Of a DNA stretch of 64,000 nt, positions 13,944 through 20,696 are shown in pieces. The stretch lies in contig CAZGKO010000002.1 of NCBI GenBank assembly GCA_964526005.1, positions 4,927-68,926 on the forward strand, given 5' to 3'. How positions within the stretch are numbered: the stretch's first letter is position 1; the number at the start of each line of letters is the position of its first letter. The notes below the pieces were generated by a model. That model was given only the letters and a program-made list of their open reading frames with translations, was not told where the DNA came from and did not search any database. Made by a program: the position numbers and the translations under genes. The stretch is from an uncultured Candidatus Peribacteria bacterium. Lineage in GTDB: Bacteria; Patescibacteriota; Gracilibacteria; UBA1369.

Positions 13944-16900
13944 TTATGATGAAGATGTTTCAACTGCTAATTTTAATTTGCTTAATTCAGTATCTTTGGC
14001 TGCTGATTTTTTGAATAGAATATAAAATGCAGTGGGTAATATAACTAAAGTAAGGATTGTGGATGTAGATAAACCAAAAATAAGAGCGGCTCCTAACCCT
14101 TGCCAAGTTTCATTAGTTAAAGTGAGGGGAATCATCCCAATAACTGTAGCAATAGATGTAAGGAAAATCGCTTCAAGACGTGATTTGGAAGCATCTATAA
14201 TCGCTTCTTGATAAGGAATTCCCACTTTAAGATTAAGGTTTACCTTATCAATTAAAATAATTGCATTCTTAACTACAATTCCAAAAAGTGCAAGAATCCC
14301 AATTAAAGCAGGGAATGTTAAAGTGAGTCCAATTAAAGTAAAACCGAAGAACACGCCGGTTATAGCGAGAGGAATAGTAATTAAAACCAAAGCGGCTTTA
14401 CGAAAAGAATTAAATTGAATAACTAGCGTTGACACAATCAATATAAAAGCCACGATCATAGCGCGTAAGATTGATAAAATAGAGTCCGTATTGGTTTGAT
14501 TAGCACCTCCGTAAGTTATTGTTATATTTTTGGGTAGGGGATTTGCCTTAATTTTATTTTTAAATTCTGTGAGAATATCGGTTGGCAAATAAGGTTTGGT
14601 AACTGCAGCAGTTAAAGTAATAACACGTTTTTGGTCTACACGATGAATAGAAGTGAGAGCAGCTCCAATTTTGATATTGGTAACCTCTCCAATTTTAACT
14701 GGTTGTCCGGTTTGTGATGTGATAGTAATATTTTTCAGTTTTGCGATTGTATTAACAGTGTCTTTCTGAAACTGAGCGCGGACATTTATCTCATCTTGAT
14801 TACGCAAAATAGTGGTTACATCAGTACCGGAAATAGCGGTACGAAGAGCCCTGGCAATTTGGGCAGTGGTTACACCTCGAGCACTAGCTTGTTCTGGTAA
14901 AACATGGAAAGTAAATTCTCCGGGAGAAAGATTTAAAGAAGTTTTTTCATTCACTGTCCCTGGAATAATATCTAAGATATTTTTATATTTATCAACTACC
15001 GTTTCCAGTTGATTTAAATTGTCTCCGGCAAATTGAGCTTGAAAATCGGCTCCTGCGGGTGGTCCTCCTTGAATTTCAATTAATTCGATTTTCGCTCCAT
15101 GAATTTTATTTAATTTTTGTCTTAAATTAGCAGCAATATTATAAGATTTTTTCTTGATTGGACGATTATTATAATCATAAAGATTAATAGCAAATTGTGC
15201 ACGATTTGTTTGTCCTCCTCCACCATTACTCATTCCTAATTCTCCTTTAGAAGTATTAACTCCAGCGGACCCAATTATTTCAGAAAAATTTTTAATATCT
15301 GGCTCAGTACGCAATACTTTTGTTACTTGATCAGCAATTTTTGAGATTTGATTGGTTAATAACCCTGGTGCGCCGGTAATATTTACATACATATATTGTT
15401 GATCGGATGCAGATAAAAATTCGGATTTTAAAATACCTGAAGCAGGAAGGGCAATAGCACCGATAAAAAGAACAACAGCTACAGTCAAAACTAAAATCCT
15501 TTTAAATCGAGAATTCAATATTGAATTTAAAAGTTTATCGTAAGCCGGTAAAATTTTATCAAAACTTACAATACCACCACTAATTTTCCCCCAGAGAGTT
15601 CTATTTGCTTTAGAATCAATATAATGATGGCGAATACGTGCTTTTATCTTTGCTGGATCCGCTAATTCTTCTAATTGTAATTGTTCGTTTTGAATAAGTT
15701 TTTCTTTGAGACCACTGTGATAACGGAAAAAAAGTATAAATAGAATTAAAATTAAAACTACACTCATAATTACATTACCAACTGTTACGGAAAATATTAG
15801 GCTAATCAAAGAAAGCAAAAGAATTATTCCCAATATTGCCATAAAAGATTTAAACCAAACCGTGGTAAGACGAAATCTCTCCAGAACAGCTCCCATAGTG
15901 TGATTGATAAAAATAGCAATTAACATGGAAGAAAAAATAGTCATGCTAACTGTAATTGGAATTGAACGGATAAATGAACCAATAATACCAGTAGCCAATA
16001 ATAACGGAATAAATGAAAACATGGTGGTTAATGCTGTGGTAATAAGTAAATTTTTAAAATCACGAAATACTAATAAAATGGCTTCTTCAGGTGTGAATTT
16101 ACCGGTAGAAAGATAACGTTTGGTAGCTTGTACTACAACAATGGCATCATCAACTAAAAATCCTAAAGACATAATTAACGAGAAAAGAGAAAGAAAATTT
16201 AAAGTTATGCCGAATAAAACCATAAACCCAAAAGTAGATGAAAATACTAATGGAATAACTAATCCGGCAACCAAAGCTTCTTTTAATCCGACAAATAAAA
16301 GTAAAACAAAAAATACCAATATAATCGTAATTATAGCATCACGAATTAAGTCCCCAAAGTCGGAACCGATTTGTTTGGAAATATCTAAAATAGTTGCTGC
16401 TTTAAGATTTTGTGGGAACTCTGTTTGCTGCAGTATCTTCAATTTATTTTTACCTTGATTAATCAAATCAATGATAGAATAACCTGTTTTTTTTATTACA
16501 TTAATAGTAACAGCATTTTGAAGCTCACCGCCTTTAGCAGAAAAACGATTGATTACTTTATTATCCTGAGCTTTTTCAATAACATTGGTAACATCGGTAA
16601 GTTTAATAATGGTGCCAGTGCTGGTTGTGATTGGTAATGCCCGAATATCATCAATTGTATTTGTCTTACCATTAATTTTTAAAGCATATTGATAATTTCC
16701 AATATTTATCATGCCAAGCGGCAAAGATAAATTAGCGGCTTTGATTTGACCAATAACCTGATTCATAGAGAGTCCGTAGGCTTGTAATTTTTTAGGATTA
16801 AAATCGAGAGCGATTTCAGTAATATCGCCGCCACTAACCATTACTTTGCTAGTTCCGGGCAGTTTATCAAGTTGATCTTTTAAATCATCAGCATATTTTC

Positions 16901-17444
16901 TTAATGTAAATCCATCATAAGGACCGGAAAGTACTAATGTCCAAATTGGTGTATTGGAAAAAGAAACTTGGGTCACTTGTGGATCAGAAGCCTCACTTGG
17001 AAGATTAGGTTTAGCTTTATTTACAGCATCACGTAAGCGTCTAATACTATCATTTAAATTTTGATTAGCATTAAACTCCGCTGTAATAGTGGCAAATGAG
17101 TTTAAAGCTGTAGCTTTCATTGTTTTTAAGCCTTTCAAACCAGCAATTTCTGGTTCAATTTTTTTAATTACTAATTCTTCCATATCGGCAGGAGAGGCCC
17201 CTGGTAAACTAATTGTAACTACTCCATAAGGAATCTTTACTTCTGGTGATGATTCAAGAGGAAGCATATTAAAAGAAACAATTCCCCAAATTAGAATTGC
17301 AATTATTAAAAGTATGACTACCCGAAAATTATCGAGAAAGAATTTTAGAAAAGATTTATTATCTTTTGGGGTAAATTTAAGTTGTCCAAGATAAAGGGAA
17401 TCGGAACTAGATGAATTAGATTGTGGAGTTGTTTTTTTTGACAT
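13944..17444 (-). CDS. RND-family efflux permease (AcrB/AcrD/AcrF-like), 1166 aa
   Basis: Typical RND layout. TM1 followed by a large loop, then TM clusters GLVIPLVFSSTFGFMVLFGITLNFLSLFSLIMSLGFLVDDAIVV and LALFGIVVKNAIILID. Start overlaps the upstream stop (TAATG). Confidence 0.85.
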   Translation of the reverse strand: MSKKTTPQSNSSSSDSLYLGQLKFTPKDNKSFLKFFLDNFRVVILLIIAILIWGIVSFNMLPLESSPEVKIPYGVVTISLPGASPADMEELVIKKIEPEIAGLKGLKTMKATALNSFATITAEFNANQNLNDSIRRLRDAVNKAKPNLPSEASDPQVTQVSFSNTPIWTLVLSGPYDGFTLRKYADDLKDQLDKLPGTSKVMVSGGDITEIALDFNPKKLQAYGLSMNQVIGQIKAANLSLPLGMINIGNYQYALKINGKTNTIDDIRALPITTSTGTIIKLTDVTNVIEKAQDNKVINRFSAKGGELQNAVTINVIKKTGYSIIDLINQGKNKLKILQQTEFPQNLKAATILDISKQIGSDFGDLIRDAIITIILVFFVLLLFVGLKEALVAGLVIPLVFSSTFGFMVLFGITLNFLSLFSLIMSLGFLVDDAIVVVQATKRYLSTGKFTPEEAILLVFRDFKNLLITTALTTMFSFIPLLLATGIIGSFIRSIPITVSMTIFSSMLIAIFINHTMGAVLERFRLTTVWFKSFMAILGIILLLSLISLIFSVTVGNVIMSVVLILILFILFFRYHSGLKEKLIQNEQLQLEELADPAKIKARIRHHYIDSKANRTLWGKISGGIVSFDKILPAYDKLLNSILNSRFKRILVLTVAVVLFIGAIALPASGILKSEFLSASDQQYMYVNITGAPGLLTNQISKIADQVTKVLRTEPDIKNFSEIIGSAGVNTSKGELGMSNGGGGQTNRAQFAINLYDYNNRPIKKKSYNIAANLRQKLNKIHGAKIELIEIQGGPPAGADFQAQFAGDNLNQLETVVDKYKNILDIIPGTVNEKTSLNLSPGEFTFHVLPEQASARGVTTAQIARALRTAISGTDVTTILRNQDEINVRAQFQKDTVNTIAKLKNITITSQTGQPVKIGEVTNIKIGAALTSIHRVDQKRVITLTAAVTKPYLPTDILTEFKNKIKANPLPKNITITYGGANQTNTDSILSILRAMIVAFILIVSTLVIQFNSFRKAALVLITIPLAITGVFFGFTLIGLTLTFPALIGILALFGIVVKNAIILIDKVNLNLKVGIPYQEAIIDASKSRLEAIFLTSIATVIGMIPLTLTNETWQGLGAALIFGLSTSTILTLVILPTAFYILFKKSAAKDTELSKLKLAVETSSS

Positions 17445-19192
17445 TACTTTGAAGAGACGGTTACGGGTTGTCCTTCGATCAGCTCATGTGCACCTTTGAG
17501 AATTACCCGCTCGTTTTTGACTAGTCCACTTAAGATTTCAATTTGATCTCCGACGATTTTGCCTGTGGTCACATCTATTTTTTTGACATGACCACTGTCT
17601 ACTATATAGACAAATTGTTCATGAGTACCAATAGTCACAGCATCTAAAGGAAGATAAAGAGAGTTCTTATTTTTTGAACTAATTTGTAAAGGTAGTTTTA
17701 CATTTAAGATCTGTCCAACACGGAAGAAAATTTTTGGTAAAGCTATTTTTACTTCAACTAGACCAGTTCTAGCATCGGTAATCGGGGATATACTAGATAT
17801 AGCTGCGTCTACCCATTGATTAGCAATTTGAACTTGAGCGATAATATTGGGAGAAATTTGATTAGCTGTATTTGTGTCTACATGAAGAATAACTTCAAAA
17901 TCAGAAGGGGTAAGAATTGAAAATAGTTTATTTTGTGGTGAAACTGTGTCATTTAGGTGTAAATCTAAACCAGCTATAATACCATCTTCTGGTGCTTTTA
18001 TAGTAAGTTGATTTAATTGAGATTTGGCTAAATTGTAATTTAATTTAGCTAATTGAAGTTGATTATTGGCTTGATCCTGAGCAGTTTTAAGCTGTTGTTT
18101 GGTTGCTTCAAAAGCTTTCTGCGCCTGTTGCATAGCAATAATACTATGTCCATCATAGCCAACTTTTTGTTCAGTTGACTGTTTAGTGGCAACGGTAGCA
18201 TTAAGTTGTCCCTGAGTTTTGATAACTTGACTCAAAATTTGATTATTCCCGAGTTTGATAGAATCAATGCCATCATTGTAAGCGAGCTTCGCTTTATCAT
18301 ATAAGGTATAAAGCTTATTTAAAGACTGATTTTCTTTTAGATAAGTAGCACAAAGGCTACTGTGCATATCAGTGGAAGGGGATTTAGAAGATGTTGATTG
18401 TAAATTGGACTGATGAATAGAAGTGGTACAGAGTTGATTGGAGGTATTTGAATAATTATTGAGAGATTTAATTTGACCAATGGTATTATGCTTTTGACTT
18501 TGCATTTCATTAATAGAAGAAATTAAATCGTTTAAATTTTGGTGAGCATTGGTTAAATCACGATTAGTTTTGGTGTTGGAAGATGAAAGTGAATTGTTTA
18601 ATAAATTGATACCCTGCTGAAGGGAACTAATATTTGAATCCATAACTGATAAATTTGTAATGAAAGCTTGTGTTTGATTTTTAGCATTTTGAAGTTGAAG
18701 CTGAGCATTTTGTAAAGTGATTTTACGGGTAGTCGACAAATTGTCCACACTCCGTTTAGCAAAATTATAATTTTGCTTAGCAATTTGATATTGGGTTTCA
18801 ATAGGATTTGATTCCCCATTAATTCCAGTTAATTTAATGATAATATCACCGGTTTTTACAAAATCTCCTTCGTGAAAATTGATTTTTGTAATTGTTCCAC
18901 TAACAGCTGAATGTACTCCAATTAAGGTTTTGGAAAATACCTTACCAGATGTTGGTAAAAAAGATTTTCCAATATTCTTAGCTGGAATAGTTGTTACATT
19001 AATTATATTTGATTGGATCTGACTACTGGATGATAGAGAGATGGATTTTGATTTTGTAGTATTATTATTAATTGCTGCCGATCTGATAATTAAACTATAG
19101 ATAAAAAATGTCAGTCCTACAAAAATTATTAATATAATTATACCTTTACTCAATTTACTTAATTTGCTCATAATGCGGGTTTTAATATGCAA
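17444..19192 (-). CDS. efflux membrane-fusion (HlyD-family) adaptor protein
   Basis: N-terminal TM segment. Lipoyl/barrel motifs (GTITKINFHEGDFVKTGDIIIKL; ITAPEDGIIAGLDL). Very long Q/N-rich coiled coil. The 19192 start is TTG; the more likely ATG is at 19171 (MSKLSKLSKG + TM). Confidence 0.8.
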   Translation of the reverse strand: MHIKTRIMSKLSKLSKGIIILIIFVGLTFFIYSLIIRSAAINNNTTKSKSISLSSSSQIQSNIINVTTIPAKNIGKSFLPTSGKVFSKTLIGVHSAVSGTITKINFHEGDFVKTGDIIIKLTGINGESNPIETQYQIAKQNYNFAKRSVDNLSTTRKITLQNAQLQLQNAKNQTQAFITNLSVMDSNISSLQQGINLLNNSLSSSNTKTNRDLTNAHQNLNDLISSINEMQSQKHNTIGQIKSLNNYSNTSNQLCTTSIHQSNLQSTSSKSPSTDMHSSLCATYLKENQSLNKLYTLYDKAKLAYNDGIDSIKLGNNQILSQVIKTQGQLNATVATKQSTEQKVGYDGHSIIAMQQAQKAFEATKQQLKTAQDQANNQLQLAKLNYNLAKSQLNQLTIKAPEDGIIAGLDLHLNDTVSPQNKLFSILTPSDFEVILHVDTNTANQISPNIIAQVQIANQWVDAAISSISPITDARTGLVEVKIALPKIFFRVGQILNVKLPLQISSKNKNSLYLPLDAVTIGTHEQFVYIVDSGHVKKIDVTTGKIVGDQIEILSGLVKNERVILKGAHELIEGQPVTVSSK

Positions 19193-19210
19193 TTGTTTTA
19201 AGAAGTGGCT

Positions 19211-19239
19211 ATAATATTAGATATTTTGAAACTTGTCAA
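19211..19239 (-). promoter_or_regulatory. sigma70-type promoter of the efflux operon
   Basis: Minus strand: TTGACA (19234-19239), 17-nt spacer, TATTAT (19211-19216). Confidence 0.55.
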
Positions 19240-19489
19240 AATATATTTCCATGTTTTAGTTAATTAAACTTAACTATTTTAAGAAAATGAAAAGACTATA
19301 TTTGAAATTTTATTTATATACATGACGAATATGAACTAAAAGTGAATTGGGAAGTATTTATCAATAATTCTAATCAGTCTGAAATACTATTTATATTAAT
19401 GCGTAATTATATTAATGACCAACCCTGTGAATATTTTGGGAATATCTTTGCTATATGTTGTTATACGGAGAAATCGCTTATAATTAATT

Positions 19490-20038
19490 TTAAAAAAAAT
19501 TAAGTGGTATTTTAAAAATATTTTAATAAGAAAGGCTACTGTGGCGATGGTTCCGATGAGGAATTGACACTTGAAAAAGAGTAACCATGAATAGGTTGTT
19601 CTGATAAATACGGATAAATCAATTCTCCCGAGAATAGATAAATCTGTTTTCAGATCAGTGTCCTTCTGTTGAGTGTGATTTTGATTATTCTACTAATTTC
19701 GTACCTATACTTTTTGTGAAGGTGGCGAAGTTTGTGAAAATCATATATCAGACTTGATAAAAAAGTCTAACATGATGGCAAAACTGGGTATCTAGCGTAC
19801 CATGGTGCTGGTATTTCCTAGTTTATTTGCTATTAAAACTGTGAAGTCAATCTATCTATAATGACTTCACACTCTACTTCCAGAAGGAGGACAACACCGA
19901 AGGTATTAAATATGGTAACTTTTATTTATAATGACACCGATTTCGATAGCTTTGCGGCTGGGAAACCAAAGGCAAGCTGACATTTCGGCAGTTAGTGAGC
20001 AGCGGCGCAAAAGCGCCGCTGCTCACTTCTCATTTTTT
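19490..20038 (+). ncRNA. candidate structured non-coding RNA (class unknown)
   Basis: No ORF of 60 aa or more on either strand between 19193 and 20180. Locally G+C-enriched blocks and hairpins (for example gtgaagtca-12nt-tgacttcac at 19841-19870). TATAAT at 19479-19484. Ends at a perfect intrinsic terminator. The 5' end is a guess. Confidence 0.3.
19994..20038 (+). terminator. rho-independent terminator (plus strand)
   Basis: agtgagcagcggcgc-aaaa-gcgccgctgctcact is a perfect 15-bp stem, followed by tctcatttttt. There is no plus-strand CDS upstream of it. Confidence 0.85.
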
Positions 20039-20180
20039 AAGTATTAATAGATTAAAATACAGAAAAATACTTATATTCATACTAATTAAATAGTGATTTA
20101 AGATCATATTTCAGAAAGAGTTTTTTCTTTAAAAGGAATCTTTTATATGTTATATATCAAACACAATTTGGTGAAATTTA

Positions 20181-20696
20181 ATGAAAAAACTCAAGATTGA
20201 AACAGGCATCAATAATAAAATTCTGCGAGCGATTTCCAAGCCGGTAAAAGGAATTAATAAAGAATTGCAGAAGTTGTTAAAAGAAATGGAATACACTTTG
20301 GATAATTCTAATGCGGTTGGTTTGGCTGCGCCACAAGTTGGACAAAATATTAGAGTTTTACTGGCAAAATTTAATCATACTACTGATAATGCAATTAATA
20401 TATCGATGATTAATCCAGAAATTGTCTGGGCTTCGGAAGAAATGGATATAGAGGAGGAAGGTTGTTTAAGTATTCCAAATTATTTTAATAAAGTGGCTAG
20501 ACATAGTGAGGTGACAATAAAATTTCAGAATATAAAAAATCGTGAACAAATGCTTAAATTAAGTGGTTTTAATGGTAGGGTAGTTCAACATGAAATTGAC
20601 CATCTTGATGGAATTTTGTTTATCGATAAAATAGTCGAAAAAGTGGAGACGGAACTTGAGGTGAAGCAGGATCAAGAAGAGCATTTATCTATTTAA
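20181..20696 (+). CDS. def: peptide deformylase
   Basis: Motifs GLAAPQVG, EGCLSIP, HEIDHLDG. Confidence 0.95.
   Translation: MKKLKIETGINNKILRAISKPVKGINKELQKLLKEMEYTLDNSNAVGLAAPQVGQNIRVLLAKFNHTTDNAINISMINPEIVWASEEMDIEEEGCLSIPNYFNKVARHSEVTIKFQNIKNREQMLKLSGFNGRVVQHEIDHLDGILFIDKIVEKVETELEVKQDQEEHLSI

Follow-up and report, generated by a model that had tools for sequence, protein, structure and literature searches.

The 988-nt gap between the gene for a membrane-fusion protein (MFP) and def, the gene for peptide deformylase, may hold a stand-alone gene for a structured RNA on its plus strand, specific to the species or genus. The probability of this reading, which draws on folding models, is put at roughly 0.45. 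Transcription would be driven by a TTGTTA-15-TATAAT promoter, start at about position 19491 and halt at the intrinsic terminator at 19994-20038, giving a transcript of about 545 nt. The RNA is predicted to comprise a closed domain (19577-19923) with a four-hairpin core, a hairpin capped by a GNRA loop, and the terminator stem. Rather than as a messenger, the product would most likely act as RNA, be it a stable transcript, one that binds protein or a regulator. The terminator may also shield def, which probably has a weak promoter of its own. A transcribed structured RNA is favoured by predicted folding that is in excess and biased to one strand, by GC that has been retained, by a terminator without an owner and by the absence of any coding trace.

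The locus and its neighbours

The host assembly has 0.93 Mb in 22 contigs with about 32% GC and comes from an ultra-small, Peregrinibacteria-like bacterium of the CPR type; the homologues of its peptide deformylase carry the names Peregrinibacteria, Gracilibacteria or Patescibacteria. Positions without a prefix refer to the window, the whole 64,000-nt stretch of DNA that was analysed, which corresponds to C2:4927-68926 of this assembly. The genetic code is standard, and the long genes of the window are open under code 11. The gap (19193-20180) ranks fifth in length among the 617 gaps of the genome, the median being 66 nt; the longest gap is the one in which the tmRNA gene sits. The MFP gene forms a divergent RND efflux operon with the gene for the RND permease (Table 1), and def is followed by the convergent gene for RF2 (prfB). 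A 3077-bp contig from the independent Logan assembly (L112) is 100% identical over the MFP gene, the gap, def and prfB, and the gap is thus not the product of a mis-join. The sequence is also contained in the DNA sequencing run SRR6439354.

The original prediction had described a region free of ORFs of 60 aa or more on either strand, lying between the promoter of the efflux operon and def. Listing of the ORFs confirms that there is none of this length from the MFP start (19192) to def (20181), and a consensus scan recovers the promoter at 19211-19239 on the minus strand (TTGACA-17-TATTAT). The longest ORFs of the gap encode 53 aa (19342-19503, with a GTG start) and 39 aa (19861-19980).

The composition of the gap is not uniform. 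The GC fraction is 0.20-0.23 at 19200-19500 and 0.33-0.39 at 19600-20000, while ordinary spacers of the genome have 0.20-0.26; GC and fold stability climb only past about 19530-19580. The three G+C-richer strings that had been pointed out in the 3' part are present, as are the hairpin at 19840-19871 (10 perfect pairs), the CUUCC-AGAA-GGAGG hairpin at 19877-19890 and the TATAAT at 19479-19484. The proposed large structured non-coding RNA of about 0.8 kb has to be revised in its size: the 3' part is predicted to be folded and appears non-coding, but only about 19577-20038 is structured. The candidate is thus about 0.45-0.55 kb long, and the AT-rich spacer at its 5' side (Table 1) probably lies outside the RNA.

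A replication origin was considered and rejected: gene orientation flips at the gap, yet the GC skew is positive throughout the 76-kb contig. A repeat, a MITE or another mobile element was likewise rejected, the segment being single-copy in the genome and without notable terminal inverted repeats. No match to the segment was found among phages, plasmids and viral contigs. Further downstream, an inverted repeat (20118-20133 with 20177-20192; 16 nt, 94% complementary) would place the def start codon in a hairpin. Its z-score of -0.8 is not above shuffles, and it is probably a chance pairing in AT-rich DNA.

Table 1. Annotated and predicted features of the gap and its flanks (window positions)
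Feature	Position	Strand	Basis and details
RND permease gene	13944-17444	-	Pfam; divergent RND efflux operon with the MFP gene
MFP gene	17444-19192	-	Pfam
RND-operon promoter, TTGACA-17-TATTAT	19239-19211	-	Consensus scan
AT-rich spacer without structure	19240-19457	none	Composition (GC 0.20-0.23); 150-nt windows with z +0.6 to +2.6 on the plus strand
Candidate promoter, TTGTTA-15-TATAAT	19458-19484	+	Looser consensus scan; inferred start at about 19491
5' segment, two small predicted hairpins (19503-19508/19535-19540; 19551-19554/19560-19563)	19491-19576	+	Pair probabilities 0.85-0.92
Closed multi-helix domain (predicted)	19577-19923	+	Outer helix 19577-19588/19912-19923, 11 pairs, probability 0.89-0.90
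Hairpins within the closed domain, beside the core	19586-19625; 19630-19651	+	Predicted fold
Core (predicted)	19660-19892	+	GUCCUUC (19660-19666)/GGAGGAC (19886-19892) closes four hairpins; helix probabilities 0.72-1.00
Core hairpin A	19682-19743	+	Predicted fold
Small core hairpin	19750-19768	+	Predicted fold
Core hairpin B	19773-19835	+	Predicted fold
Core hairpin C	19840-19871	+	Predicted fold
Promoter, TTAAAA-18-TATAAT	19833-19862	+	10/12 matching positions; only plus-strand promoter in the gap by the standard scan
22-codon mini-ORF, in-frame end of the 39-aa ORF (19861-19980)	19912-19980	+	Stop 14 nt ahead of the terminator stem
Hairpin D (predicted)	19937-19988	+	GAAA (GNRA-type) apical loop, UGG-GAAA-CCA at 19959-19968; pair probabilities 0.93-0.97
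Intrinsic terminator	19994-20038	+	Stem 19994-20027, 15 perfect pairs (11 G-C), AAAA 4-nt loop, tail TCTCATTTTT
def (peptide deformylase)	20181-20696	+	Pfam

The terminator

The flawless GC-rich hairpin of 15 bp with a T-tract, reported earlier at 19994-20038, is confirmed for the plus strand only, the minus strand of the hairpin having no T-tract. The scan gave two terminator-like sites, against 0.4 expected from shuffles. Perfect stems of at least 9 bp that are followed by a T-run occur at only about 15 sites genome-wide. In nearly all intergenic cases, a gene stop on one strand precedes the site by about 0-31 nt; two others are inside ORFs. Two terminators elsewhere in the genome that seemed to be ownerless were assigned to genes on the minus strand. 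At the 19994 site, in agreement with the claim that no plus-strand gene lies upstream, no ORF of at least 100 aa ends nearby on either strand. The simplest reading is thus that the terminator closes a transcription unit beginning inside the gap.

Predicted fold of the plus strand

Fold stability was expressed as a z-score relative to shuffles (200 dinucleotide shuffles for the core), and the terminator was excluded from the segment 19500-19990. This segment has a z-score of -5.3 on the plus strand and -3.0 on the minus strand. The RNase P RNA and the tmRNA of the same genome, used as references, have z-scores of -5.4 and -4.1, and 46 random 491-nt windows of the genome have a mean of -0.47 with a standard deviation of 1.55. 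The 233-nt core (19660-19892) reaches -7.4 on the plus strand, its minimum free energy being -76.8 as against a shuffle mean of -46.6. Windows of 150 nt inside 19600-19900 have plus-strand z-scores of -4.1 and -5.6; the background of 296 random windows of this length has a mean of -0.30, a standard deviation of 1.2 and a first percentile of -3.5. The minimum free energy of 19577-19923 is -105.2 kcal/mol on the plus strand, with 17 G-U pairs, versus -83.7 kcal/mol on the minus strand, with 6 G-U pairs. According to these models, the plus strand equals the RNase P RNA and tmRNA of the genome in its folding and surpasses the minus strand.

The fold (Table 1) is a prediction from a single sequence. 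A 5' segment with two small hairpins precedes the closed domain, within which two further hairpins stand beside the core. The stability excess of the 5' segment is weak (z -1.8), and hairpin D, when taken alone, is no stabler than shuffles. Hairpin C is a perfect 10-bp inverted repeat, TGTGAAGTCA-N12-TGACTTCACA (19840-19871), which spans the spacer and the -10 box of the promoter at 19833-19862. This repeat could be a DNA operator instead of an RNA hairpin.

Comparison with known RNA families

All 4227 families of Rfam 15 were scanned at the gathering score and at E-values up to 10. In this comparison, which had been suggested as a check of the original prediction, no family matched the gap at either threshold, and the weak chance matches all fell on the terminator hairpin. 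The earlier view that the candidate belongs to none of the classes RNase P RNA, tmRNA and SRP RNA holds. The RNase P RNA (RF00010) is located at C3:3830-4350 with 173 bits and the tmRNA (RF00023) at C4:24852-25276 with 110 bits, and neither model matches the gap at E up to 10. The models for SRP RNA (RF00169, RF01854) and 6S RNA (RF00013) have no match in the gap, nor genome-wide at E up to 1. A type III toxin-antitoxin RNA of the ToxI kind was rejected: the gap has no tandem repeats, just short two-copy matches, and the downstream gene is that for peptide deformylase.

The protein side of the SRP pathway was also searched for. With the Ffh protein of E. coli as tblastn query (Pfam confirms the SRP54 and SRP_SPB domains in the sequence used), the best E-value in the assembly, which has 22 contigs and 34 N-gaps, was 0.56, and neither Ffh nor FtsY was found. 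Judging from these searches, the SRP pathway seems to be absent from the host assembly.

The candidate resembles independently transcribed small RNAs in several respects. Bacterial small RNAs have been found in intergenic regions as an orphan promoter combined with an intrinsic terminator, this being the logic of the early E. coli screens and of SIPHT. Like such RNAs, the candidate is intergenic, free of ORFs and species-restricted, with a strong ownerless Rho-independent terminator and a plausible promoter of the sigma-70 type. However, at about 450-550 nt, with its predicted closed multi-helix domain, it would be far longer and more structured than typical base-pairing small RNAs, and it has no visible target or chaperone context. 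In its length of several hundred nucleotides, its predicted multi-helix architecture, and its origin in an uncultured lineage, it also resembles the large orphan RNAs OLE, GOLLD, ROOL, HEARO and the raiA motif, although it matches none of those Rfam models. Those classes were defined by conservation and covariation over many genomes, whereas the candidate is a single copy in one genome. The genome's own tmRNA and RNase P RNA have comparable fold z-scores, and the promoter layout of the candidate is that of the tmRNA gene; unlike the candidate, both match Rfam models (110 and 173 bits, respectively) and are conserved across the family.

Conservation and history of the locus

Conservation in relatives, one of the points on which the original prediction was to stand or fall, was not found in the genomes searched. 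Searches with blastn using the gap gave nothing in 40 relatives or in 36 family genomes. A covariance model of the core was negative for the 36 family genomes, for 205 order genomes and, in the nearest relatives, for the syntenic loci; the best match (19.8 bits) lies inside a 257-aa ORF. A positive control was built in the same way from one sequence and predicted structure of a 248-nt domain of the RNase P RNA. It recovered 30 of the 35 other family genomes with 64-109 bits, and the negative result for the core is therefore meaningful at the range of the family. The 36 family genomes include no second genome of the genus of the host, and the lack of a sequence or structure homologue refers to the range spanned by the 36 family and 205 order genomes.

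Closer relatives cover the locus in part. In the nearest strain (94.8% identical, L113; JGI sample 3300003886), the contig ends at window position 19303. The next species, whose def is 78% identical, is represented by a 736-bp contig in which the 170 bp ahead of def do not align. No further member is present in the clusters at 90% for def, prfB and the following gene, and a def search of metagenome and genome contigs returned only relatives with def identities of at most 46%.

In more distant relatives, the slot is filled by protein genes. In one relative (L107/L108, def 57% identical), the stretch from the MFP gene to def is occupied by genes for a glycosyltransferase and a DsbD-thioredoxin protein and by two toxin-antitoxin pairs, MazE/PIN and ParE; these genes are all on the plus strand and end 72 nt before def. 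Another (L110, def 54% identical) has a HigB pair right after def, and a third (L114) has other neighbours next to the MFP gene. The slots between the MFP gene and def and after def are a variable island, which in relatives carries toxin-antitoxin pairs (MazE/PIN, ParE, HigB) as well as envelope or redox genes. Such a history would fit both an acquisition specific to the lineage and the decay of an island.

The main rival to a functional RNA gene is accordingly a non-functional remnant of such an island, left by lost or foreign genes, in which the terminator is left over from the last plus-strand gene and the hairpins are incidental. The toxin-antitoxin and other protein genes carried by relatives at this slot are in line with a remnant, and so is the lack of conservation in any relative examined; the missing homologue and the variable-island context keep this explanation alive. 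It is nevertheless judged less likely than the RNA gene, as no protein similarity was found in any frame of the gap. Pfam, NCBIfam and PADLOC gave zero matches on the six read-through frames of the gap, and the proteins encoded at the locus in relatives, used as tblastn queries, showed no similarity to it. A decayed pseudogene had been named beforehand as the finding that tblastx might bring to light; run against the fetched loci of relatives and against the host's own genome, it uncovered no protein similarity and no remnant. An ORFan gene that has decayed past recognition could escape such searches. Reading TGA as a residue opened no credible frame in the gap.

Codon usage also argues against a remnant. 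By a score trained on 429 long genes, three frames resemble stop-free non-coding ones: the 53-aa ORF, the 39-aa ORF and, on the minus strand, an open frame of 97 codons. No coding-like stretch appears when the score is slid along the gap. The 53-aa ORF has no homologue in a word-indexed protein collection. The gap region appears non-coding in all tests run, except that codon usage is ambiguous for the 22-codon end of the 39-aa ORF. In addition, the fold excess, which matches that of RNase P RNA and tmRNA and is stronger on the strand of the terminator, is not what decay would yield, and GC remains well over that of neutral spacer despite the AT pressure on the genome.

Candidate promoters and the 3' mini-ORF

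The promoter from which the RNA of about 545 nt would be transcribed (19458-19484) was found by a looser consensus scan, the standard scan with spacers of 16-18 nt omitting it. About two TATAAT boxes are estimated to occur by chance per 800 nt of such composition. The same unusual layout, TTGATT-15-TATAAT, precedes the tmRNA gene of the genome. The promoter returned by the standard scan (19833-19862) falls inside the core, at hairpin C. On sequence grounds, the upstream match is inferred to be the likelier start of the two.

If the downstream promoter were used, the last 170 nt or so might alone form a gene, encoding a 22-residue peptide (19912-19980), with hairpin C serving as an operator palindrome. 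The promoter matches the consensus at 10 of 12 positions and is the sole plus-strand promoter of the standard scan in the gap, the perfect 10-bp palindrome at 19840-19871 spans its spacer, and the stop codon, 14 nt before the stem, falls within the usual stop-to-stem range of the genome (9-31 nt). The codon score of the 22-codon end is ambiguous and not clearly non-coding. However, the 39-aa ORF to which it belongs scores under 97% of coding windows, and a search of 1.84 billion representative proteins gave no homologue of it. In the predicted fold, the ATG of the mini-ORF lies in the outer helix and its start region is base-paired; this region is also rich in G and C, whereas the gene start regions of this genome are rich in A and T, with 4-10% G.

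Shine-Dalgarno sequences are not used in this genome: among 532 genes, 0.4% have GGAGG upstream, a share no higher than in a control interval. The AAGGAGG at 19884-19890 thus cannot be taken as a sign of translation, and since GGAGG does not serve as a ribosome site in this genome, the simpler reading is that it pairs with GUCCUUC. From its sequence context, the mini-ORF is probably untranslated. A peptide gene at this place would also leave the strongest structure signal (19600-19870) unexplained, and it is considered improbable.

In its order of promoter, structured RNA, terminator and gene, the locus matches long leaders of the attenuator or riboswitch type, which control the downstream gene by regulating how often transcription passes the terminator, and the consensus scan finds no promoter between the terminator and def. 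Such control of def is nevertheless highly improbable, as riboswitch, T-box and leader families have no match at E up to 10, the very strong stem lies 143 nt ahead of the ATG, the arrangement is absent in relatives, no alternative pairing ahead of the terminator exceeds shuffles (z -0.06 for the fold of the preceding sequence, and duplexes with either terminator arm no better than shuffles), and a TTTAAA-17-TATATA match about 20-25 nt before the def ATG is compatible with the short leaders of this genome. By these pairing calculations, the terminator looks constitutive and not regulatory.

Other GC-rich regions of the genome

A second, stronger orphan structured-RNA candidate is present in the same genome at C1:41715-42260 (locus C1:41400-42300). 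It is an island of 51% GC in the 32% GC genome and folds with z-scores of -8.2 on the plus and -9.1 on the minus strand. On the plus strand, a TTGACG-17-TATTAT promoter match lies ahead of it and a 17-bp hairpin (C1:42266-42303) follows. Neither Rfam nor blastn against 36 family genomes gives a match to the segment, and its only ORF is an odd one of 185 aa.

Several contig ends are also GC-rich, with GC fractions of 0.51-0.67 (C7:1-1800, C16:1-900, C12:1-1600, C8:1-800, C19:1-900 and C10:1-400). Some of them are related by internal tandem repeats (C12 with C8, and C16 with C7). These ends probably belong to repeat-rich genes at which the assembly breaks.

Implications

The genomes of CPR bacteria are tiny and under strong reductive and AT pressure. 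In such a reduced genome, a gene-free kilobase, half of which is predicted to fold as tightly as RNase P RNA, calls for an explanation. If the segment is a remnant, it would be an example of the decay of an island slot in a minimal genome, and a warning that fold z-scores alone over-call RNA genes.

If the segment is a true RNA gene, it would provide a clonable candidate of about 545 nt with a predicted promoter and terminator. As a tentative generalization, it may be a functional, fast-evolving RNA gene of about 0.5 kb and one instance of an undescribed habit of the CPR/Patescibacteria, namely the keeping of lineage-specific, ORF-free, folded RNA genes in variable slots. A true RNA would add to the hints that CPR bacteria rely on lineage-specific structured RNAs that are invisible to family databases.
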